A DNA stretch of 64,000 bases, taken from NCBI GenBank assembly GCA_947374865.1, contig CANCDR010000010.1:20319-84318 (forward strand). The letters are read 5' to 3'. A model generated the notes under the pieces. It searched no databases. It saw nothing but the letters and a program-made list of their open reading frames with translations, and was not told where the DNA came from. This DNA is from Oxalobacteraceae bacterium. GTDB taxonomy: Bacteria; Pseudomonadota; Gammaproteobacteria; Burkholderiales; Burkholderiaceae_D. Both the position numbers and the translations under genes were made by a program. Of this stretch, positions 6,394 through 16,517 are shown piece by piece (position 1 is the stretch's first letter; the number at the start of each line of letters is the position of its first letter).

Positions 6394-6422
6394 AAAAAAC
6401 TGTCATGTCAAGACCTGACCCC
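6394..6422 (-). repeat. Copy 3 of the 28-nt element, inverted orientation
   Basis: The + strand reads AAAAAACTGTCATGTCAAGACCTGACCCC. It overlaps the stop codon of the glycosyltransferase ORF. Confidence 0.9.
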
Positions 6423-7238
6423 ATGGTTTTTTAGGCCGCGGCTTGCTTCGATGGTGCGGTTTTGTGCGCGTGCGAGTACGAGGTCGCGGTTGCTTGATGC
6501 TTGGTCACGTTGGGCTTCGCGGTGCCAGAGGTGGAATACTTCGGTGGCGAAGGCGCCGTCTTTGCGCATCACGCCGGCGTTGAATAGCCTTACTACCAGG
6601 TCCGAATCTTCATGGCCCCAGCCGAGGAAGCTTTCATCAAAGCCATTTACGAGCGCCAAATCGCTGCGCCAGACACCCAGATTACAGCTCTTGATACGAC
6701 GCCAGCTAAAGCTTCGGCGTTCACGCCCCAAGTCAGGCCAGCGTAGCACCCACTGCAACAGTTTGTTGACGTGACCTTGCAAACGCCAACCTAGTTTGCT
6801 TGCCAGAGGAACGCGCGAGAGGTCGATCCCTTCGGCCATGACACGCTCGCTCAGTGCCGCACTCATGAGCACCCTGCTCCCCGAGACCAGAAAACCAGGT
6901 CGCGCCAGCTGGCGGTGACGCGCGACAAAATCACGTTGGGGTATGCAGTCCCCATCCAGAAAAACAATATACGCACCATGCGCTGCCAATGTGCCACGAT
7001 TGCGCGCCATCGCCGCACGAAAGCCTTCATCACTTTGCCAAACATGCACCAGCGACACCGGCGACTCAGCCCGCAAGCGGTCGATCATTTCCCTTGTGTT
7101 GGCAGTGGAGCCGTCATCGGCGATAATGATTTCAAAATGCTTCTCACTCTGCACAAAACAGGCCCGAATCACCGTCTCGAGCGCATCGGGTCGGTTATAT
7201 GTCGTAATGACAAGAGAAATAGTCGCGTCTAGATGCAT
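6408..7238 (-). CDS. Family 2 glycosyltransferase
   Basis: 276 aa. GT2 signature ISLVITTYNRPDALE...IIIADDGS...FLDGDCIP and a C-terminal GWGHEDSDL block. The last four codons plus the stop lie inside repeat copy 3. Confidence 0.85.
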   Translation of the reverse strand: MHLDATISLVITTYNRPDALETVIRACFVQSEKHFEIIIADDGSTANTREMIDRLRAESPVSLVHVWQSDEGFRAAMARNRGTLAAHGAYIVFLDGDCIPQRDFVARHRQLARPGFLVSGSRVLMSAALSERVMAEGIDLSRVPLASKLGWRLQGHVNKLLQWVLRWPDLGRERRSFSWRRIKSCNLGVWRSDLALVNGFDESFLGWGHEDSDLVVRLFNAGVMRKDGAFATEVFHLWHREAQRDQASSNRDLVLARAQNRTIEASRGLKNHGVRS

Positions 7239-7294
7239 GCTGTTTGATCGAACTTTTCACATACCAAAACAGCAGATTACCTATTTAAAGTTGC

Positions 7295-8551
7295 ATGAAC
7301 AATAGACTCAAGCAAATAATTTCACCAAAGCAGCTGGTCGCGGGCCTACTGGTGTTTTTGCTGCCATTTCTCAGCCTCGTGACCCTGTGGGGCGTGAGTG
7401 GCGTCAGCTTCGGCATTGCGGCTGTCGCTGCGCTGATCATCATCACCGGCCAGGGACGCAGCGTGATGGCACCACATTGGCGCGCCGTGCGTCCGGTGTG
7501 CTTGGCTTTCCTGCTTCATTTTCTATTCACTCTGGCTTGTCTGATTCTGCGTAGCGAGGCAATCCTGTCCGCGCTCGAAAGGCCGGCGCGCATGTTGTTG
7601 GCAATATCTGCGCTGATGCTGGTTTTGTGGGCACGTCCCGATCGTCGATTTCTTTGGTGGGGCGTTGCCGGCGGTGCCTTGGCGGGTGCTTTTCTGGTCG
7701 GTTATCAGAGGCTCGGTCTGGACATGGATCGTCCCGGTGGTTTGATGAATGCGATCACCTTTGGCGATATGTCGCTCTGTCTGGGTTTGATTTCGATCGC
7801 CGCCATGATCGACCAGCGCAGCGCGCGACAAATGATATGGCCCATCATCGGTCTGATCGCCGGTCTGGCCGGATCGGTCATGACAGGCACGCGGGGTGGC
7901 TGGCCTGCGTTGGCGTTGGCGGCTGTGATCATGGTTCGCTATAGTCATGCGCTCAATAGTCGGCGTGTGCGTGCCTGGGTAATCGTGAGTTTTGTCTTGG
8001 TCGGCGCTACCTATTTCATCCCTGGCAGCGGCGTGAGCGAGCGCGTCGACGAAGGTATCGCCGGGATCAGCAGTTATTTTAATGGTGGAAGTGTCTTCAC
8101 CATCATGGGTATCCGGCTCGAGCTCTGGAAGAGCGCCAGCATGCTGATCGCCGAACATCCCCTGCTGGGTATCGACTACCAGGCCGCTGCTGTGCGTATG
8201 ACCGAATGGGTCGCTGCAGGTCGTCTGGATCCCGTGGTACTGACCATGCCGCACTTACACAATGAATACTTACAGAAATGGGTGACGGGCGGTGCCGTCG
8301 GTTTGGTGATCTGGCTAGCGACCCTGATCACCCCAATAATTTTTTTCGCCCGCCAGCTCGCTCCAGGTGCTCAAGCAAACAAAACCGTCATCGCCTGCGC
8401 CCTCGCCGGCCAATTCGTCGTCACGAGCTATCTGTGCTTTGGCCTCACCGAAGTCATCTTCTGGTCAGTCAAAGCCAGCCTCTTCTATGCACTCATGGTC
8501 TTCCTACTCATGGGCCTCTGCCTCAACGAAACCCCTGGGGTCAGGTCTTGA
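7295..8551 (+). CDS. O-antigen ligase (Wzy_C) family membrane protein
   Basis: 418 aa and polytopic (about 10 or more hydrophobic segments). It has a Wzy_C-like central loop region (..GTRGGWPALALAAV..) and is divergent from the GT2 gene. The last four codons plus the stop lie inside repeat copy 4. Confidence 0.75.
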   Translation: MNNRLKQIISPKQLVAGLLVFLLPFLSLVTLWGVSGVSFGIAAVAALIIITGQGRSVMAPHWRAVRPVCLAFLLHFLFTLACLILRSEAILSALERPARMLLAISALMLVLWARPDRRFLWWGVAGGALAGAFLVGYQRLGLDMDRPGGLMNAITFGDMSLCLGLISIAAMIDQRSARQMIWPIIGLIAGLAGSVMTGTRGGWPALALAAVIMVRYSHALNSRRVRAWVIVSFVLVGATYFIPGSGVSERVDEGIAGISSYFNGGSVFTIMGIRLELWKSASMLIAEHPLLGIDYQAAAVRMTEWVAAGRLDPVVLTMPHLHNEYLQKWVTGGAVGLVIWLATLITPIIFFARQLAPGAQANKTVIACALAGQFVVTSYLCFGLTEVIFWSVKASLFYALMVFLLMGLCLNETPGVRS

Positions 8552-8672: not shown

Positions 8673-8700
8673 AAAAACAAAAAAGCCTACAAGCTTGTGA
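8673..8700 (+). repeat. Left copy of a 28-bp direct repeat AAAAACAAAAAAGCCTACAAGCTTGTGA
   Basis: 27/28 identical to 16392..16419 in the same orientation. Sequence beyond CTTGTGA diverges. Confidence 0.9.
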
Positions 8701-8737: not shown

Positions 8738-11710
8738 TTAGCCGTGCAAGCTGATCAGTCCACCCGGCGACACTGATGTCGCTACAGTAAACGAATAAAT
8801 ACCAATCAATTCAACGACAGAGTCATTCATCGAGATTGCCGAAGAACTAATATCATGCGCACTGACGATATACGTATTTCCTTGGAATACGAAAGCTTCC
8901 AAACTGCCATTATTTGAGGCGCTAGCAGCCCCAGTCGCCGCTGAAGCCATATTTGCCGCAGTCAACCATGTCGATAAAGACCTCGCATCCCCCGCAACAT
9001 TGGTAATTGTGTTGATTATCCCCATTCGCAGTAAATTATTATTTAATGTCATCGTCAGGGTATCTGAGGAAGTGGCCGTGTTGTTCAAGCCTGAAATAGT
9101 GCTGTAATGTATTCCATCAGTTATACCGACCGTCACCGCATCATGGGTAAAATTAGAGTGAGCGCCTAATTTAATTGTCAATGCATCACCCAATCCTGCG
9201 GCAATAATAGTTGCTGACCCACTACCAACTGTAATATTCCCAGACACGCCATTGCCGCTGGCTTTGATCGTTCCAAGTCCACCGTTACCCAGTGTGATAT
9301 CAATCGTGCCGACAGAGGATGTCATAACAGAATTATTGGCGCCATCACCTAAGTTCACTGTTTGGCTAGAACCAACAACGCCCGAACCTAAAATCACCGT
9401 ATCGTAAGCGCCATTCCCCATCGTGACTTTTACGACGTTTCCTGCTGCTGTGGCACCTGATAATGTCACGTAATTATGCGTTCCTGCATTGCCAGATACA
9501 TCCTTTGTCGTGATGCTGACATTGCCTACGGAGGCACCAGTTACATAGTCACCCAAGCCAGAACCTAATGCGACGACTTGAGTGGACCCAGCAACACCTG
9601 GTCCTAAAGTAACATAATCACCGATTCCATTTCCCATGGTTATGGTGTTCGTTGCTGTCGCTGAGGTTGCGCCAGCCAAGGTCGCATAATCGCCCGCACC
9701 ATTGCCAAATGTCAGCGTAACGTTGCCTGTAGATACAACCGTAGCATAATCGCCTACGCCAGCGCCCAAGGTGAAATTAATCGATCCGGCAGCAACAGCA
9801 GCACTGGTAATGTAATCACCCGCACCATTTCCCAGAATTACGGTTTGATTGCCAACATCTGAAGCACTAGACAAAACGACATAGTCCCCTGCATTCCCAC
9901 CCATTTTTACAGAATCGTTCGCAGCTGAAGCAAGCGTCACCGCTGTCCAAGCAGAAGCCACAGCATTGGCTGCATTAGTAGCCAAAATTCCCGCCGCAGT
10001 CACGGCATTCGTTGCAGCCAAGTCATCTGTCGTCACTGTTGTGAGCTTCGTTACCGCTATTAAGTTCGCCGCTGCCGTCACCGCTGATGCGGCTAAAGTC
10101 TGCGCGTCCAAGGCATTCTTCGATGCCAGTGTGGCAGCATCAACCGAGGCATTAGTCAAAGTAAGCGTGGTTGCAGAATCCGCTGCGGCGGTGGCCTTAG
10201 CAGCGTTTAACGTTGCCAAGGTTGCCGCCGTAACTGCACTATTCGCAGATGCGGTGTAAGTCGACAAGGCCAAATCCGCGTTCGCTTCACGCGACAATTC
10301 TAGGCTCACGACGGATAAATTGGTATTTGCTTTAGATAAGGCACTCTCAGCAGCAAGGACAACATTTTTAGCCTTCGTCACCATTACAGTCGCTGCATCG
10401 ACTGCGCTCGTCCCTGCGTCATCGTCGGTAAGAATCTTGGTAAGAACAGTCGCTGCTTTGTAAGTCGTGGCGGATGACATCACGCCTTTAGCCGCATCTT
10501 GGTAAGCATCGGCATTTGACTTTGCCAGCGTCGCCGCTGTGACGTATGCATTGGCATTCGCCAGTGATGTCGCAGCAAGATTTGCAGCAGATGTGGCCAA
10601 GTCACCATTCACGGTAGCCGCATCAGCAGCAGATGCAGCAAACAATTTAGCATTGTTAAAGCTGCCCAAGACTATCACCGCATTTTGTTCGTTGGCGACA
10701 TCTTTAGTCGCCTGTTGGGAATCTAGATTTGCTTGTAGCTTCCCTTGAACGCTGGCATTTTCTGCTGCAGCGACTACTTTTTGCTGACCCGCAGTAACGG
10801 CACTTGCCGCGACTGATTTTGACAATTTCGTCACCGCAATAGCGTTACTTGCCGCCACATCATCCGAGGTATCGCTAGTGGCATCCGTAGCAGCTTTCAA
10901 TTCGGCAGCAGCAGTCGATGCCAACGCAGCATAAGCAAAATAAGTTGCCGCTGTTGATGAAGCCAGATTTGCCGCAACAGTGGCCACTGCCGCCAAGGGA
11001 ACCGTGTTAGCAGCAAGTGCTGCATTATCAGCAGCAAGGGCAGCACTTGTAGCGGCGGTCGCATAAGTATTGACGTTTGCTGCAGCAATGCCGTAATTCT
11101 TCAAGGCAGATGTCGCGCTTATCGCCTTAAGAGCTTGCATGGCAGCGATTGCTTCGGCATTTGCTGTATCTGTCGCAGCGCGATAACCGGCATCAGCCGA
11201 ATAAGAAGCGGCAGCATTTGCAGCAGTGACGTCAGTCGATGTCACCAGTTTAAGAATGGCCGTAGCATCAGTTACGCTAGTGCCTTGTAATGTTGCGCCA
11301 AAATTTAAGGCAACCGCGACTTTATTCATAAACAGCGCTTGTGAGATATAGCCAGCTGCATCATTGCCAGCGTAATCCAAAACAGCAGCAATGAGTTTAA
11401 CGACAACGCCGCCAACACTGGCACCAGAGGCATTCAGTTCTGCAGTCCAATGCGCGAGTCCCTCAGCATCTGGCATGCGTCCCAGAACATTGGTATAGAA
11501 GTTAGTAACGATTTGTCCATTATTCAAATTCAATGGGTAAATCGTGCGTGCGGCTTCTGTTGTATACATTTGTTGTGCAATGGAGGAAAAGCTTGCCCCC
11601 TTGCCCATCAGGTCAACCCAGAAAGCCAAACCACTCGCTTCAGGGGCGCGTGCAAACAGGGATACGTAGAGTTGTGTTACTTGCGTCGTCATTGCGCTAT
11701 GCATAGCCAT
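8738..11710 (-). CDS. Large leaderless surface/secreted-type protein: N-terminal DUF4214-like module, Ala/Thr-rich central region, G-x-G-x-GDY repeat block, distinct C-terminal domain
   Basis: 990-aa ORF with no signal peptide and no Cys. N-terminal motifs are LYVSLFARAPEASGLAFWVDLM and FYTNVLGRMPDAEGLAHWTAEL. Repeats include GNAGDYVVL, GNGAGDYITS, GAGVGDYATV, GNGAGDYATL, GNGIGDYVTL, GSGLGDYVTG. Confidence 0.8.
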   Translation of the reverse strand: MAMHSAMTTQVTQLYVSLFARAPEASGLAFWVDLMGKGASFSSIAQQMYTTEAARTIYPLNLNNGQIVTNFYTNVLGRMPDAEGLAHWTAELNASGASVGGVVVKLIAAVLDYAGNDAAGYISQALFMNKVAVALNFGATLQGTSVTDATAILKLVTSTDVTAANAAASYSADAGYRAATDTANAEAIAAMQALKAISATSALKNYGIAAANVNTYATAATSAALAADNAALAANTVPLAAVATVAANLASSTAATYFAYAALASTAAAELKAATDATSDTSDDVAASNAIAVTKLSKSVAASAVTAGQQKVVAAAENASVQGKLQANLDSQQATKDVANEQNAVIVLGSFNNAKLFAASAADAATVNGDLATSAANLAATSLANANAYVTAATLAKSNADAYQDAAKGVMSSATTYKAATVLTKILTDDDAGTSAVDAATVMVTKAKNVVLAAESALSKANTNLSVVSLELSREANADLALSTYTASANSAVTAATLATLNAAKATAAADSATTLTLTNASVDAATLASKNALDAQTLAASAVTAAANLIAVTKLTTVTTDDLAATNAVTAAGILATNAANAVASAWTAVTLASAANDSVKMGGNAGDYVVLSSASDVGNQTVILGNGAGDYITSAAVAAGSINFTLGAGVGDYATVVSTGNVTLTFGNGAGDYATLAGATSATATNTITMGNGIGDYVTLGPGVAGSTQVVALGSGLGDYVTGASVGNVSITTKDVSGNAGTHNYVTLSGATAAGNVVKVTMGNGAYDTVILGSGVVGSSQTVNLGDGANNSVMTSSVGTIDITLGNGGLGTIKASGNGVSGNITVGSGSATIIAAGLGDALTIKLGAHSNFTHDAVTVGITDGIHYSTISGLNNTATSSDTLTMTLNNNLLRMGIINTITNVAGDARSLSTWLTAANMASAATGAASASNNGSLEAFVFQGNTYIVSAHDISSSAISMNDSVVELIGIYSFTVATSVSPGGLISLHG

Positions 11711-11835
11711 TAATAATCTCCATCAATTCAAAGTTGCGCCGCTATCGCAAGTGAGGTCATCATTGTTAGAATGTGCAATGTCAGCGTCGGTAAAGGTGTC
11801 GTCCCCAGTCAGGGGGGTGTATATGAGGGCTTATG

Positions 11836-11851
11836 AGCAGGAACTGTGCCA
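11836..11851 (-). promoter_or_regulatory. Candidate sigma-54 (-24/-12) promoter facing the 990-aa gene
   Basis: The - strand reads TGGCAC-AGTTC-CTGCT with GG-N10-GC spacing, about 125 nt upstream of the start codon at 11710. A sigma-54 activator gene lies 3 kb away. Confidence 0.55.
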
Positions 11852-11872
11852 TGCATTAAAAATGCATGGCAC
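11846..11872. repeat. Perfect 12-bp inverted repeat GTGCCATGCATT-AAA-AATGCATGGCAC overlapping the -24 element
   Basis: Direct reading. The two arms are exact reverse complements. Confidence 0.9.
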
Positions 11873-11966
11873 CCCCTATACTTTCAAAGAAAATTATAAA
11901 AGTGTGCGGGTATAGGTATTGCGGTTAAATGGGGTGACGACACCATAGTTAAGGTGAAAACTCCCG

Positions 11967-12443
11967 TCATGAAAGTAGCATTCCCCCTTGAGGGTGCATC
12001 TCCTTGCTATAACTCCTTGATGGGTCCCCCACTGGCAACTTGTCATATTGCCCCTCCAATACACGCTCTACCGCATCCATTAATATAAGTTGCGTGAAAG
12101 GTTTGATCAGGTAGGCGTCGCATTCAGCGGCCATCCCGCGTTCAACATCGTTACTGCGACTGAGTCCGGACATCAAAATGACGCGTGTTTGATGTTTTAA
12201 TATTGAATGCGTCTTGATGCGTTTGCAGACTTGATAACCATCCAAAAATCCTGGAAACATCACGTCTAGCAAGATGAGACAAGGTCGCAGATGTTGCACA
12301 ATACGCCAGGCATCGTCACCAGTATTCGCCTCATGCAGAATCCGCTTATTATCCTCAAGGCTTACCCTGAGAAGTCGGCGCATTTCAAACTGGTCATCGA
12401 CGATGAGAATATTCTGTATCATTGCCAAGCCTTTTTTATGCAT
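11967..12443 (-). CDS. Single-domain response regulator (CheY-like receiver)
   Basis: ILIVDDQFEMRRLL..., phospho-acceptor context LILLDVMFPG, and conserved Lys context AYLIKPF. The start may instead be the internal Met (MIQNILIVDD). Confidence 0.85.
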   Translation of the reverse strand: MHKKGLAMIQNILIVDDQFEMRRLLRVSLEDNKRILHEANTGDDAWRIVQHLRPCLILLDVMFPGFLDGYQVCKRIKTHSILKHQTRVILMSGLSRSNDVERGMAAECDAYLIKPFTQLILMDAVERVLEGQYDKLPVGDPSRSYSKEMHPQGGMLLS

Positions 12444-12541
12444 TATGTATTGGAGCGGCGGGGTCCGCGCTTTGCGACCGCGCAGGCATGGAATGGATCA
12501 ACGCGTTGGGTTGGGTCACGCGTTTTGTCTAACATCTAGTT

Positions 12542-12557
12542 AGCAAAAATCGCGCCA
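12542..12557 (-). promoter_or_regulatory. Candidate sigma-54 (-24/-12) promoter facing the CheY-like gene at 11967..12443
   Basis: The - strand reads TGGCGC-GATTT-TTGCT with GG-N10-GC spacing, about 100 nt upstream of the ORF start. Confidence 0.5.
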
Positions 12558-12696
12558 GCGTTTAAAGACGATGGATTACTTCGCTCGCTTGGCTTTGTTT
12601 GTGAAGAGGGTGACGGCGCACAGAAGAATAATTCCTCAATGGCGTAGTGGACTTAGGGCGTGACTGCTGACACTTTCGACTTTTTAAGCGAACAAA

Positions 12697-13110
12697 CTAG
12701 GGAGTCGTCGCCACAGTTGATGCATATCCTCCTCGCATTAATACCGCGCGAATGGATTTGATGATTTCATCATGACGAAATGGCTTAGCAACAAATGCTG
12801 AAATATGCCCCATTTTCAAACGTTGTTTAATAATGGCATCGTCTGCATAAAAAAATCCTGATACTAAAATAGCTGGCGCTAAGCATGTCGTCTCGTTACG
12901 AATCCGTATGATGAGTTCAAGGCCTTCAATGTCATTGAGCTTGGCATCGACCAACATGAGCTGGCAGCTGTGTTCGTGTAGCCATTGCATCGCCTCTTGA
13001 CCGCTAGCAGCTAGGGCAACGACAAAGCCATTTTTAAGTAGAATCATCTCCAGCACCCAACGCACATCGGGTTCGTCATCAACAACGAGTACAGTGATGC
13101 CCTCAGTCAT
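12697..13110 (-). CDS. Single-domain response regulator (CheY-like receiver)
   Basis: VLVVDDEPDVRWVL, LMLVDAKLNDIEG, AFVAKPF. The start overlaps the kinase stop by 4 nt. Confidence 0.85.
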   Translation of the reverse strand: MTEGITVLVVDDEPDVRWVLEMILLKNGFVVALAASGQEAMQWLHEHSCQLMLVDAKLNDIEGLELIIRIRNETTCLAPAILVSGFFYADDAIIKQRLKMGHISAFVAKPFRHDEIIKSIRAVLMRGGYASTVATTP

Positions 13111-14624
13111 GTGACTTGCGCTAATAAGGGTAGGCGTACAACAAATAAACTGCCCACGCCTACCTCACTGAATTCCACATTGATCGTTCCCTTGAGTTGC
13201 GCCACAATGGTGTGCGAAATGGATAAGCCGAGTCCTGTCCCCTGCCCTACAGGTCGAGTGGTAAAAAAGGGGTCGAATAACTTCGCCATAAGAGCAGGCG
13301 CAATGCCGCAGCCAGCATCACGCACGGAAAATACCGCCTCGTCATGCTCTTTCAGCATAGATACGATCACATCGCCACCGGTCGGCATTGACTGAGCGGC
13401 GTTTAAAATCAGATTCATCATCACCTGCCTTAGTAGACTTTCATTCCCCAACACAAATACAGGTGGATCTTCGTAGACTTCCAAAAAATTTATCTTGGTG
13501 AGCTTTGCTTGTGGCGTCAGAAAACTGACCGTATCTCGCGCCAAGTTGACAAGGTTGACTGATTCAATTTGATCGATAGTGGAAGGACGCGCAAAACGCA
13601 GCAAATTTTCAATAATCACAGAAGAGCGTTCAATGCCATCCACTATTTTCTTTACGCATGCCTGTTGAAACACGGCATCAATTTCTGGCTCGAGTAAAAA
13701 CTGCGCAGCCGAATAACTGACTGCCAGCGGATTACGCAACTCATGCGCTATCCCGCCGGCCATGACGCCAAGCGCAGCTAGTTTTTCTGACTGTCGTAGA
13801 TGCTCCTCTAGAGCACGGCTTTCAGACAAATCCTTACCCACAGCGACGAATCCATTGACCATACCAAAGTCGTCACGGATCGACGAAAACAACCATTTCA
13901 CCGGTATTCGCAATCCTGAACGGGTAACAAGATTAAGCTCCAAAAATGTTACCGTACCGCTTGTGACCAGTTCTCGAATCTGGCTCGACTCAGACTGCGT
14001 TGTCTCCCAAAAATCGCTTGACATACGACCTTGTACATCCTTTAAGCTATAACCAGAAATTCGTTCCGCATTAGCATTCCAACTGGTAATCATGCCATTA
14101 AAATCCGTTACGATAACTAGGTCGTTGCCACTTTCAATGACGCCCTCTAAATAACGTAAGTCCATTCTGGCTTTTGCACTGACCCTCAATTTTTCGGTAA
14201 CATCATCTAGTACAAGCATGACATTTTCAATGCTGTCTCCTGATTTTACCGGTATTAAGGTATACAAATAAATCCGGAGGGGCATCTTTGGCTGGCGATA
14301 AGTCATCAACGCACTGGGGATCACTACACCCTTGTCAAATAGTTTCGTAATGGCTGTTTCTAGCTGCGAAATTTCTAAGCCATCATCAGGCATGAGATCG
14401 CGCAAGCGCATGCCAACAGCACACCCTTCAGGACGACCAAAATTTTGATCAGCATGCCATTTTTCCGATATGACGCAAAGTGAGGGGTCGATAAGAATGA
14501 GTGAAAAAGGTAGGTTTTGCAAAAGCAGGTTGTACATTTTTTCATGCCATCCCGCCTCATGCAATACTGATGGCGGAATGTTCGCTACACTATTCGCCAA
14601 GCTACTAAGTTCGGGATTATTCAA
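13107..14624 (-). CDS. Cytoplasmic PAS-domain sensor histidine kinase
   Basis: 505 aa with no obvious TM segments. PAS-like regions are followed by the H-box GIAHELRNPL and HATPase_c motifs (N-box LILNAAQS, G-boxes RDAGCGI and GTGLGLSI). Confidence 0.85.
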   Translation of the reverse strand: MNNPELSSLANSVANIPPSVLHEAGWHEKMYNLLLQNLPFSLILIDPSLCVISEKWHADQNFGRPEGCAVGMRLRDLMPDDGLEISQLETAITKLFDKGVVIPSALMTYRQPKMPLRIYLYTLIPVKSGDSIENVMLVLDDVTEKLRVSAKARMDLRYLEGVIESGNDLVIVTDFNGMITSWNANAERISGYSLKDVQGRMSSDFWETTQSESSQIRELVTSGTVTFLELNLVTRSGLRIPVKWLFSSIRDDFGMVNGFVAVGKDLSESRALEEHLRQSEKLAALGVMAGGIAHELRNPLAVSYSAAQFLLEPEIDAVFQQACVKKIVDGIERSSVIIENLLRFARPSTIDQIESVNLVNLARDTVSFLTPQAKLTKINFLEVYEDPPVFVLGNESLLRQVMMNLILNAAQSMPTGGDVIVSMLKEHDEAVFSVRDAGCGIAPALMAKLFDPFFTTRPVGQGTGLGLSISHTIVAQLKGTINVEFSEVGVGSLFVVRLPLLAQVT

Positions 14625-14723: not shown

Positions 14724-16292
14724 TTACAAGGATGTGTCTTGCATGACCTGTAGCGTTGAAATCGAATGATCTTTGAGTTTTTTTAGCAAAGTCTTGTAAT
14801 CAATGTGCAGCATTCGCGCCGCCTTCGCTTTATTGCAGCGCGTCTGGCGCAGCACTTGAATGATGATTGCCCGCTCCATTTGCGCGTTCACCAACGTAGT
14901 CAATTCTTTTAATGGCAAATCGCTGCCGTGTTCAAGCAGCTCGGCAGCAGAGGAAAACAATGTTTTTACATTACCAAGGGCCTCATTAAACCAAGACTGT
15001 TCATCGGAGGATGTTTCAGCCGCTACCAGCGCAGCTTCAAGCCCGCCAATCATTCCCAAATGTTTGGGTGAAATAATGCCATCGTCGTCATCGCACATTA
15101 AAACGGCGCGGCGTAATTGATTTCGTAATTCCCGCGCATTGCCAGGCCAGCTATAGTGATGAATCAGATTCCATGCCGCCTGATTAAGCCCTTGTATCTG
15201 CTTGCCCAGTTCTTGATTGGTCATGCTGAGAAAGCGGGTGACAAGATAATTAAGATCATCGCTTCGCGACTGTAAAGAAGGAATAAATATCGTATATTCC
15301 GCAATCCGATGATAAAGGTCACCTCGGAAAGTCTGCATTTTCACCATCGCCAATAGATCAGCATTGGTGGCCGCCACCACGCGGAAATCAACTTCTAAGG
15401 TCTTACTGCTGCCAATACGATGAATGCGTCGCGTCTCCAGTACACGCAGTAATTTCCCTTGTGCTGATAAGGGTAAATTGCCGATTTCATCGAGAAAAAT
15501 CGTGCCGCCGGCTGCCAGCTCAAACGCGCCAGCTTTGGCTTGATGCGCACCCGTGAATGCCCCTTTTTCGTGGCCGAATAGTTCGCTTTCAATCAGGGTA
15601 TCGGGAATCGAGCCACAATCAAGCGCTACAAACGGTTGATTGCACCGAAGGCTGAGTGCATGAATCGCTTGGGAGACCAGTTCTTTACCTGTTCCTGATT
15701 CGCCAGTCACCATGACGGAAAAATTCGTTTTTGCCACGCGCTCTACGTCGGCTTGAATTTCCATTACCGCCGAACTGCTGCCCATTTGATCGACGAGTAA
15801 TCCGGGGGAAAATGCCGGCTGAAGAACTTGTAGAACATGACGTCTTGCATCAATCCCGATCAACGCATTGCGAAGCGTAAGGACGATATCCTGATTACTA
15901 AAGGGTTTGACCACGTAGTCAAAGGCGCCAGCATGGATTGCGCGCACCGCATCCATGGTGTTGCCATTTCCCGTGATCATAATGACAGGAATCGATCTAT
16001 CAATTGCCTTGAGTCGTTTGAGTACTTCAAAACCATCGATATCGGGTAAGCCAACATCGAGAAGTACAAGATCGGGCGGGGAATCTCGAATGATTTTGAG
16101 CGCCGCTTCCCCATCAGCGGCTTCAATGACGCGCATGCCGTTTTTAGTGACAATGTTAGATAAAATCCAGCGAACATCCTCTAGATCATCAACGATTAAA
16201 ATGCTGGATGCGACGGAGGCGATTTTGATTGATATCCTATTGATGAAGTTGCCATAAAGGAAATTAAATACCCTGCTGAAAAATAGTACCAT
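14724..16292 (-). CDS. Sigma-54-dependent response regulator (NtrC family enhancer-binding protein)
   Basis: Receiver ([25 protein letters not shown]), AAA+ sigma-54 interaction domain ([23 protein letters not shown]) and a C-terminal Fis-type HTH ([20 protein letters not shown]). The N-terminal 25 residues are uncertain. Confidence 0.9.
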
Positions 16293-16391: not shown

Positions 16392-16419
16392 AAAAACAAA
16401 AAAGCCTACAACCTTGTGA
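16392..16419 (+). repeat. Right copy of the 28-bp direct repeat AAAAACAAAAAAGCCTACAACCTTGTGA
   Basis: 27/28 identical to 8673..8700. It forms part of the tRNA-Pro terminator. Confidence 0.9.
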
Positions 16420-16440: not shown

Positions 16441-16517
16441 TGGTCGGGGCGAGAAGATTCGAACTTCCGACCCCATGCACCCCATGCATGTACGCTACCA
16501 GGCTGCGCTACGCCCCG
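16441..16517 (-). tRNA. tRNA-Pro (anticodon GGG)
   Basis: 77 nt. Acceptor CGGGGCG/CGCCCCG, discriminator A plus CCA, anticodon arm CATGC-ATGGGGT-GCATG, T-loop GTTCGAATC. Confidence 0.9.

Follow-up and report, generated by a model that had tools for sequence, protein, structure and literature searches.

We analysed a 64,000-nucleotide stretch of contig CANCDR010000010.1 from an Oxalobacteraceae bacterium (64 kb, hereafter the window), in which a gene encoding a 990-amino-acid (aa) protein is preceded by a putative sigma-54 promoter, P1, that shares its -24 box with a perfect palindrome. From the sequence evidence laid out below, we consider it probable that P1 is a working promoter of the 990-aa gene, that an activator resembling GvrA of gas-vesicle clusters drives both P1 and a second sigma-54 promoter, P2, from 24-bp dyads, and that the palindrome is an add-on. 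The kind of system, an enhancer-dependent sigma-54 promoter, is known; what would be new is that the Gvr module comes without gas vesicles and that the -24 box is built into a palindrome. The features needed first are these:

8738..11710, minus strand: encodes the 990-aa protein (DUF4214 module at the N terminus, Ala/Thr/Ser-rich stretch, GxGxGDY repeats).
11836..11851, minus strand: P1, a sigma-54 -24/-12 promoter, TGGCACAGTTCCTGCT; consensus match, 15.3 bits, predicted start near 11825.
11846..11872, no strand assigned: perfect palindrome GTGCCATGCATT-N3-AATGCATGGCAC, spanning -47..-21 of P1, with the -24 box in its promoter-proximal arm.

The minus strand from 11851 to 11836 reads TGGCAC AGTTC CTGCT with GG-N10-GC spacing, exactly as the earlier note on this DNA had reported, and departs from TGGCAC-N5-TTGCW only by a C for T at -14; the sigma-54 consensus has been quoted as yTGGCACGrnnnTTGCw (PMC12754779). 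With C11837 set as -12 and the transcription start derived from the usual -12 geometry, the transcript would begin near 11825 and carry a leader of ~115 nt. P1 is correctly oriented and lies 126 nt from the ATG at 11710 (~125 nt had been estimated), with GGAG 9 nt ahead of that codon. Within the window, the consensus with no more than one mismatch occurred seven times versus 4.0 +/- 1.9 in shuffled sequence, so the match alone is not significant, a caution that the earlier note had itself voiced. Since the window match was insufficient by itself, we scanned the whole 3.27-Mb genome on both strands with a sigma-54 matrix. P1 scored 15.3 bits, a score equalled or exceeded by ~41 sites in 6.5 M strand positions, and the number of sites as good as P1 expected on the correct strand of its 256-nt spacer is ~0.002. 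Correctly oriented upstream sites of at least 15 bits numbered 8 versus 2.2 expected from the genome-wide rate, so that approximately three quarters of such hits should be real.

The weight-matrix scoring that had been proposed as a check placed P1 in credible company, since the top oriented intergenic matches precede amtB, glnA, an nrtA-like binding protein gene, an oxidase gene and two type IV pilin genes. For comparison, glnA here has a promoter of 16.3 bits with a CTGCT -12 box identical to that of P1. None of the 12 paralogous DUF4214 genes had a comparable sigma-54 site (best score, 7.4 bits), and a simple scan of 11500-12800 found no sigma-70-like promoter where 2.5 were expected. The genome carries rpoN, on contig C20, and only five sigma-54 activators. 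The two pilin genes lie in tandem on the minus strand (G000, the genome studied here, C2:301222 and C2:302067); each has its own sigma-54 promoter, and both promoters are followed in the leader by the same small hairpin, GACGGATGGTCCGTC.

Upstream of P1 lie the second promoter and the genes from which a controller would come:

14724..16292, minus strand: GvrA-like sigma-54 activator, 522 aa (REC-AAA+-HTH_8; Sigma54_activat), assigned by domains, with GESGTGK and GAFTGA intact.
13107..14624, minus strand: GvrB-like PAS histidine kinase, 505 aa, 57% identical to the gas-vesicle cluster copy.
12697..13110, minus strand: GvrC-like receiver-only regulator, 137 aa, 56% identical to the gas-vesicle cluster copy.
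12542..12557, minus strand: P2, second sigma-54 promoter, TGGCGCGATTTTTGCT; 15.8 bits, aligning with the gvpA promoter of related clusters.
11967..12443, minus strand: receiver-only CheY-like protein, 158 aa, from an open reading frame (ORF) call and its domain.

An NtrC-family activator and a PAS kinase nearby had been described before, and both were recovered, together with two receiver-only proteins; what had been missed is that, judged by identity and gene order, these regulators correspond in type to GvrABC of gas-vesicle clusters. The activator, whose Walker A motif (GESGTGK) and GAFTGA loop are intact, has its closest relatives in two betaproteobacterial metagenome-assembled genomes (MAGs; 65-66% identity), and its best paralogue in its own genome is only 43% identical. 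In the MAGs the activator gene is followed by genes for an Hsp20-like protein, a Cdc48-like AAA protein, GvpF/L, a PAS kinase and a CheY-like regulator, and then by a sigma-54 promoter (17.2 bits), gvpA and gvpN. The activator, kinase and receiver protein studied here are 66, 57 and 56% identical, respectively, to the proteins of one such cluster (L023). An order-wide search added two further gas-vesicle clusters, with activators 63% and 48% identical, and all four clusters have the order gvrA-gvpH-gvpZ-gvpF-gvrB, with gvrC in three of the four, and then a sigma-54 promoter and gvpA. On this basis the activator, PAS kinase and receiver protein are assigned as orthologues of GvrA, GvrB and GvrC. 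Two more distant relatives of the activator (50-52%; L051, at G135:C12, and L025, in a Sheuella sp. MAG) also lie beside strong sigma-54 promoters: one of these (20.6 bits) stands ahead of a curli-like operon (CsgG, CsgF, curlin repeat), and the other (17.8 bits) ahead of a rhodanese-domain gene, behind which comes a two-partner secretion pair (TpsA/ShlB).

In Serratia sp. ATCC 39006, GvrA and sigma-54 drive gvpA1 (PMC4982088). The locus resembles that system and the gas-vesicle clusters in having an NtrC-family activator, a PAS kinase and a CheY-like regulator, in the sigma-54 promoter that directly follows the regulator genes, and in that the closest relatives of all three regulators lie in gvrA-gvpH-gvpZ-gvpF-gvrB-gvrC-gvpA clusters. 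However, unlike those clusters, it lacks gvpH, gvpZ and gvpF between gvrA and gvrB, and it has two promoters with one dyad each, whose targets are the genes for the CheY-like protein and the DUF4214 protein, with no gvpA, gvpF/L or gvpN found. Searches with tblastn gave no match to gvpA, gvpF/L or gvpN in the genome (93% complete), and an AAA+ GvpZ query gave only ~42% matches, all on other contigs.

P2 lies 700 bp upstream of P1 and ~100 nt before the 158-aa CheY-like gene, the true start of which is probably ATG 12422 (MIQNILIVDD, with AAGG upstream) and not 12443; no close homologue of its product was found in our search. By its place behind the regulator genes and its alignment, P2 is the positional equivalent of the gvpA promoter in related gas-vesicle clusters, and P1 is, on the same comparison, a second copy of the P2/gvpA design placed ahead of the 990-aa gene.

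The longest inverted repeat of the 1.1-kb region pairs 11927-11950 with 12695-12718 (19/24 positions), and each of these two sites is itself an imperfect dyad:

12695..12718, minus strand: site A, 24-bp dyad AACTGTGGCGAC|GACTCCCTAGTT, centred at ~-175 of P2; candidate upstream activating sequence (UAS).
11927..11950, minus strand: site B, 24-bp dyad AACTATGGTGTC|GTCACCCCATTT, centred at ~-113 of P1; candidate UAS.
11873..11926, minus strand: A/T-rich spacer (…CTTTTATAATTTTCTTTGAAAGTATA…) that separates the palindrome from site B, read by eye.
11795..11806, minus strand: a third, partial instance of the dyad core, GGGGACGACACC, within the predicted leader; it is complementary to the site B core.

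From the dyad centre to the promoter GG, the distance is ~151 nt for site A (P2) and ~89 nt for site B (P1), and the positions of the centres, -113 to -175, are within the usual range for sigma-54 activators (PMC12754779). Site A overlaps the final codons of the GvrC-like gene, including the stop. The pattern AACTNNGG-N8-CCNNAGTT is matched exactly once in the genome, at site A, and twice with one mismatch; sites A and B make up two of the three. Since the pattern was derived from these very sites, the count is circular, and independent evidence was therefore sought in foreign gas-vesicle clusters. The same element was found there at the last codons and stop of gvrC in L023 (ACCTATGGCGCCGGCTCCCTAGTT), L024 (AACTATGGCGCCGACTCCCTAGTC) and G077 (ACCTGCGGTGTCCTCTCCCTAGCC), its distance to the GG of the downstream gvpA promoter being 120-138 nt. 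The GvrC tails themselves differ (STVATTP, LTMAPTP, LPMAPAP, TPAVSSP), and the DNA retains -CT CCC TAG and the outer half-sites. We then built a dyad matrix solely from the three foreign sites and scanned 6.5 M strand positions with it; site A ranked first (28.1 bits) and site B third (20.3 bits). Besides site A, the only non-genic match among the top 15 was site B, and a top-three match would fall within the 115 nt ahead of P1 by chance with a probability of about 5e-5. A five-way alignment, comprising P1, P2 and the three gvpA promoter regions, revealed only two blocks common to all, the dyad and the -24/-12 element, as would be expected of a promoter and the site of its activator.

More distant activators (L025, L026, G102, G135) are also linked to sigma-54 promoters, but no copy of the dyad turned up upstream of these. 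An 8-mer, CGTCACCC, that occurs upstream of both P1 and P2 was judged compatible with chance and dropped. The partial copy of the dyad core at 11795..11806 may likewise be due to chance; with 11933-11944 it forms a 12-nt inverted repeat (92% complementary) that flanks P1, and in a read-through RNA this repeat is predicted to give a long-range stem enclosing the palindrome hairpin. The A/T-rich spacer may be a bending region, and no convincing match to an integration host factor site was seen by eye between site B and P1.

The arrangement is like the classical sigma-54 architecture of NtrC and glnAp2, with a -24/-12 promoter, dyads 100-180 bp upstream and a receiver-domain AAA+ activator with a cognate kinase, but it differs in that the dyad is unlike the NtrC sites at this genome's own glnA (TGCACC-N5-GGTGCA) and in that each promoter has a single site and no cluster of them. 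The presence of rpoN, the GAFTGA loop of the activator, the glnA-like score and the conserved dyad together bear out the earlier proposal of a functional sigma-54 promoter with the neighbouring activator and PAS kinase as its likely controller, and P1 is very probably the functional promoter of the 990-aa gene.

The mechanism is likely to be the classical one. Sigma-54 RNA polymerase would recognise TGGCAC (-24) and CTGCT (-12), so that transcription from P1 would depend on rpoN and start near 11825. The closed complex would need the AAA+ activator, the GvrA orthologue encoded 3 kb upstream, which would bind site B (~-113) as a dimer or oligomer and contact the promoter by looping over the A/T-rich spacer. 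The adjacent GvrB-like PAS kinase would switch the activator on by phosphorylation of its receiver domain, and the GvrC-like receiver protein would take part in this switching. The same activator would drive P2 through site A (~-175), ahead of the second CheY-like gene, and would thus remodel sigma-54 polymerase at both promoters. With no gas-vesicle genes to serve, the module would control a CheY-like protein and a type I-secreted-looking DUF4214 protein.

The latter protein contains six or so GxGxGDY repeats, a long Ala/Thr/Ser-rich stretch and a C-terminal domain, and no signal peptide was found in it. Its homologues share only the first ~170 residues (16-18% coverage). RTX repeats (PF00353) are present in many of these homologues and one bears the name 'S-layer protein', so the 990-aa protein looks like a type I-secreted surface protein of the S-layer or adhesin type. 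The earlier description of it as a 'giant surface protein' does not hold as to size, which at 990 aa is ordinary. The best relative of the gene lies behind a NarL-type two-component pair and has no sigma-54 site. The ~170-aa DUF4214 module is present in ~19 copies in about a dozen large proteins of the genome (e.g., C2:219967-237225, C16:30131-33283 and C24:3020-6826), one of them a 5752-aa protein with several tandem copies. Genes for a Wzy_C (O-antigen ligase-like) protein and a GT2 glycosyltransferase (window 6408-8551) adjoin the 3' end of the 990-aa gene and, near a gene for a Ser/Thr-rich protein, could encode a protein-glycosylation pair.

The palindrome requires a separate account. Its arms, 11846-11857 and 11861-11872, are 12+12 bp, 100% complementary and separated by a 3-nt spacer, as the earlier note had stated in calling the -24 element one arm of an exact inverted repeat. 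By simple arithmetic, perfect palindromes with 12-bp arms and a loop of 0-6 nt are expected ~1.4 times per genome and ~1e-4 times in the P1 spacer; the genome contains some 60 distinct ones, mostly terminator-like with A/T runs. The palindrome is non-random, far beyond chance. It is single copy in the genome, on which ground we rejected it as a member of a repeat family, and it is absent from P2 and the three gvpA promoters in the five-way alignment. It was also rejected as an NtrC site, with TGCA-N7-TGCA here versus TGCA-N9-TGCA with a CC/GG interior at this genome's glnA, where the sites are of NtrC type (TGCACC-N5-GGTGCA). Seven metagenome matches to GTGCCATGCA-N7-TGCATGGCAC were all unrelated hairpins, and no known RNA family was found in 11400-12900. 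Two related elements were found. The first lies at the start of the CheY-like gene:

12423..12443, minus strand: 21-nt sequence ATGCATAAAAAAGGCTTGGCA, matching one side of the palindrome at 18/21 positions.

Allowing up to three differences, no other non-genic match to this 21-nt sequence was found in the genome, and one genic match lies on C21. The second is the core ATGCAT-N5-ATGCAT, which occurs three times in the genome (C18:29983, C22:24362 and window 11851-11867) versus ~0.2 expected, each time intergenic, 50-100 nt past a stop codon and without a U tract; these sites could amount to a binding motif not recognised before, or to one class of 3' hairpin. Given the comparison with P2 and the gvpA promoters, the palindrome is regarded as a P1-specific add-on that the promoter design does not require.

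Three explanations of the palindrome leave P1 in place. The first, to which we would give a minority of the credence, is that, as the earlier note had proposed, it is the operator of a dimeric protein that occupies -47..-21 and bars sigma-54 polymerase from the -24 box. The perfect 12+12 bp symmetry, the specificity of the palindrome to P1, and the excess of ATGCAT-N5-ATGCAT sites, always between genes, are consistent with such a role, and the 18/21 copy at the CheY-like gene start means that one protein could touch both units. However, no candidate binder is encoded in the segment, where the sole helix-turn-helix is that of the activator, and the activator probably binds elsewhere, at the 24-bp dyad; the palindrome is unlike the NtrC-type sites at glnA and is missing from the three comparable gvpA promoters, and the other two ATGCAT-N5-ATGCAT sites have no common gene theme. 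A partial parallel exists in PexR of Myxococcus, an activator that also represses by binding over a promoter (PMC12754779). Symmetric protein sites that overlap promoter elements near sigma-54 promoters are known to exert negative control (PMC12754779), but in such cases it is a sigma-70-type promoter that is blocked, through UAS belonging to the activator itself, whereas here the palindrome overlaps the -24 box itself and differs from the candidate UAS. Direct competition at the -24 box, if true, would be an unusual way of repressing a sigma-54 promoter, and the palindrome would offer a simple case of possible negative control at such promoters.

The second explanation, also tentative, is that the palindrome acts as RNA: the hairpin, 95 nt past the CheY-like stop, would end or stabilise the P2 mRNA and limit read-through towards the 990-aa gene, and the -24 box would merely happen to be one arm. 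The predicted hairpin is strong (-17.9 kcal/mol) and is the only strong local structure after the CheY-like gene, and the intergenic RNA folds better than shuffled sequence (z = -3.25). Moreover, 84 of the 102 perfect 12-bp palindromes of the genome are intergenic and terminator-like, and all three ATGCAT-N5-ATGCAT palindromes share their place shortly past a stop codon. In a read-through RNA, the distal arm is also predicted to pair alternatively, at 18/21 positions, with the 21-nt sequence, covering the ribosome-binding site of the CheY-like gene. The palindrome resembles an intrinsic (Rho-independent) terminator in being a stable G+C-containing stem-loop shortly after a gene. However, it differs from one in having no U tract on either strand (minus, AGTTCCTGCT; plus, CCCCTATACT), and the genome's usual terminators have A/T runs; a terminator scanner gave no flag. 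Since there is no U tract, the palindrome is not a canonical intrinsic terminator, and with both promoters under one activator there would be little need for insulation.

Third, and equally unlikely in our judgement, the palindrome might be a neutral product of mutation, e.g., of template switching that perfected a quasi-palindrome, with the promoter working regardless. In favour of such an origin, the palindrome stands alone: neither P2 nor any gvpA promoter compared has it, it is unique in the genome, and no related copies were found in metagenomes. Against this, 27 bp of perfect symmetry exactly over a promoter element must be tolerated by sigma-54 binding, and the second copy, with its 18/21 matches, is hard to derive from a local mutational event.

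An improbable fourth explanation is that P1 itself is a chance look-alike and that the 990-aa gene is read through from P2 or is transcribed from an unrecognised promoter of another type. The lack of consensus enrichment in the window (7 vs. 4) favours this explanation. Several further points weigh against P1 as a working promoter under the GvrA-like activator: approximately 25% of oriented hits at P1's score are expected to be false; the frequencies of the sigma-54 matrix are an approximation of published compilations; and the gene calls of the genome are crude longest-ORF calls. No orthologous P1 locus was found in homologue searches with the 990-aa and CheY-like proteins, and the sole other contig carrying the P1 locus is 100% identical. 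Site A and its counterparts overlap the final codons of gvrC, and coding constraint or shared descent could therefore account for part of their conservation. In G077, furthermore, the gvpA promoter was recently duplicated along with a gvrC 3'-end fragment, so that site B, too, could be a leftover of duplication instead of a binding site. Despite a possible duplication origin, only the dyad and -24/-12 blocks survive in P1. A chance look-alike is also difficult to reconcile with the ~0.002 such hits expected in the P1 spacer, with a position 89 bp downstream of a dyad ranked third genome-wide by an independent matrix, with a twin promoter 700 bp away and an adjacent activator gene, and with the absence of any sigma-70-like site from 11500-12800 in our scan. 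The duplication in G077 (L053, at G077:C19, ~83076 in the record) comprises the gvpA promoter, ~55 nt from the 3' end of gvrC and an additional gvpA copy; the gene ahead of it encodes a protein with a C terminus resembling that of an HD-GYP-domain protein.

The remaining suggestion, that the mirrored TGGCAC (11867-11872, plus strand) is the -24 box of a divergent sigma-54 promoter, is extremely improbable, since the plus strand reads TGGCAC-CCCCT-ATAC with no GC at -12, and no plus-strand gene occurs before 12274, where the ORF sits inside the CheY-like gene; the idea of a second, oppositely oriented promoter element was accordingly abandoned.

We return to P1 as a promoter under the GvrA-like activator and to the setting of the module. 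The five-gene segment is bracketed by 28-bp direct repeats at ~8673-8700 and 16392-16419 (27/28 identical; AAAAACAAAAAAGCCTACAA(G/C)CTTGTGA), the latter adjoining tRNA-Pro(GGG) at 16441-16517 on the minus strand. No integrase is present, and a family-level search (E<=1e-100) gave no activator orthologue, either within the genus or elsewhere in the family. The direct repeats, the tRNA-Pro and the absence of an activator orthologue from the genus and family fit acquisition of the segment as a cassette. It is conceivable, although doubtful as a whole, that a GvrA-GvrB-GvrC module which lost its gas vesicles was rewired in this 7.7-kb cassette to the DUF4214 and CheY-like genes, with the palindrome as a second switch, either an operator competing with sigma-54 at -24 or a DNA or RNA hairpin coupling both units.

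A sigma-54 promoter beside an activator gene is textbook, and the gain from the promoter call is mainly a confident annotation of the regulation of an otherwise opaque surface-protein gene. In addition, AACTNNGG-N8-CCNNAGTT provides a concrete candidate binding site for GvrA-class activators; none is described in PMC4982088, and the wider literature was not searched for one. More generally, the locus suggests that a gas-vesicle regulatory module can persist without gas vesicles and take over other cell-surface genes. The curli-like and two-partner-secretion neighbours of the distant activators hint that this subfamily may generally control buoyancy or surface structures.

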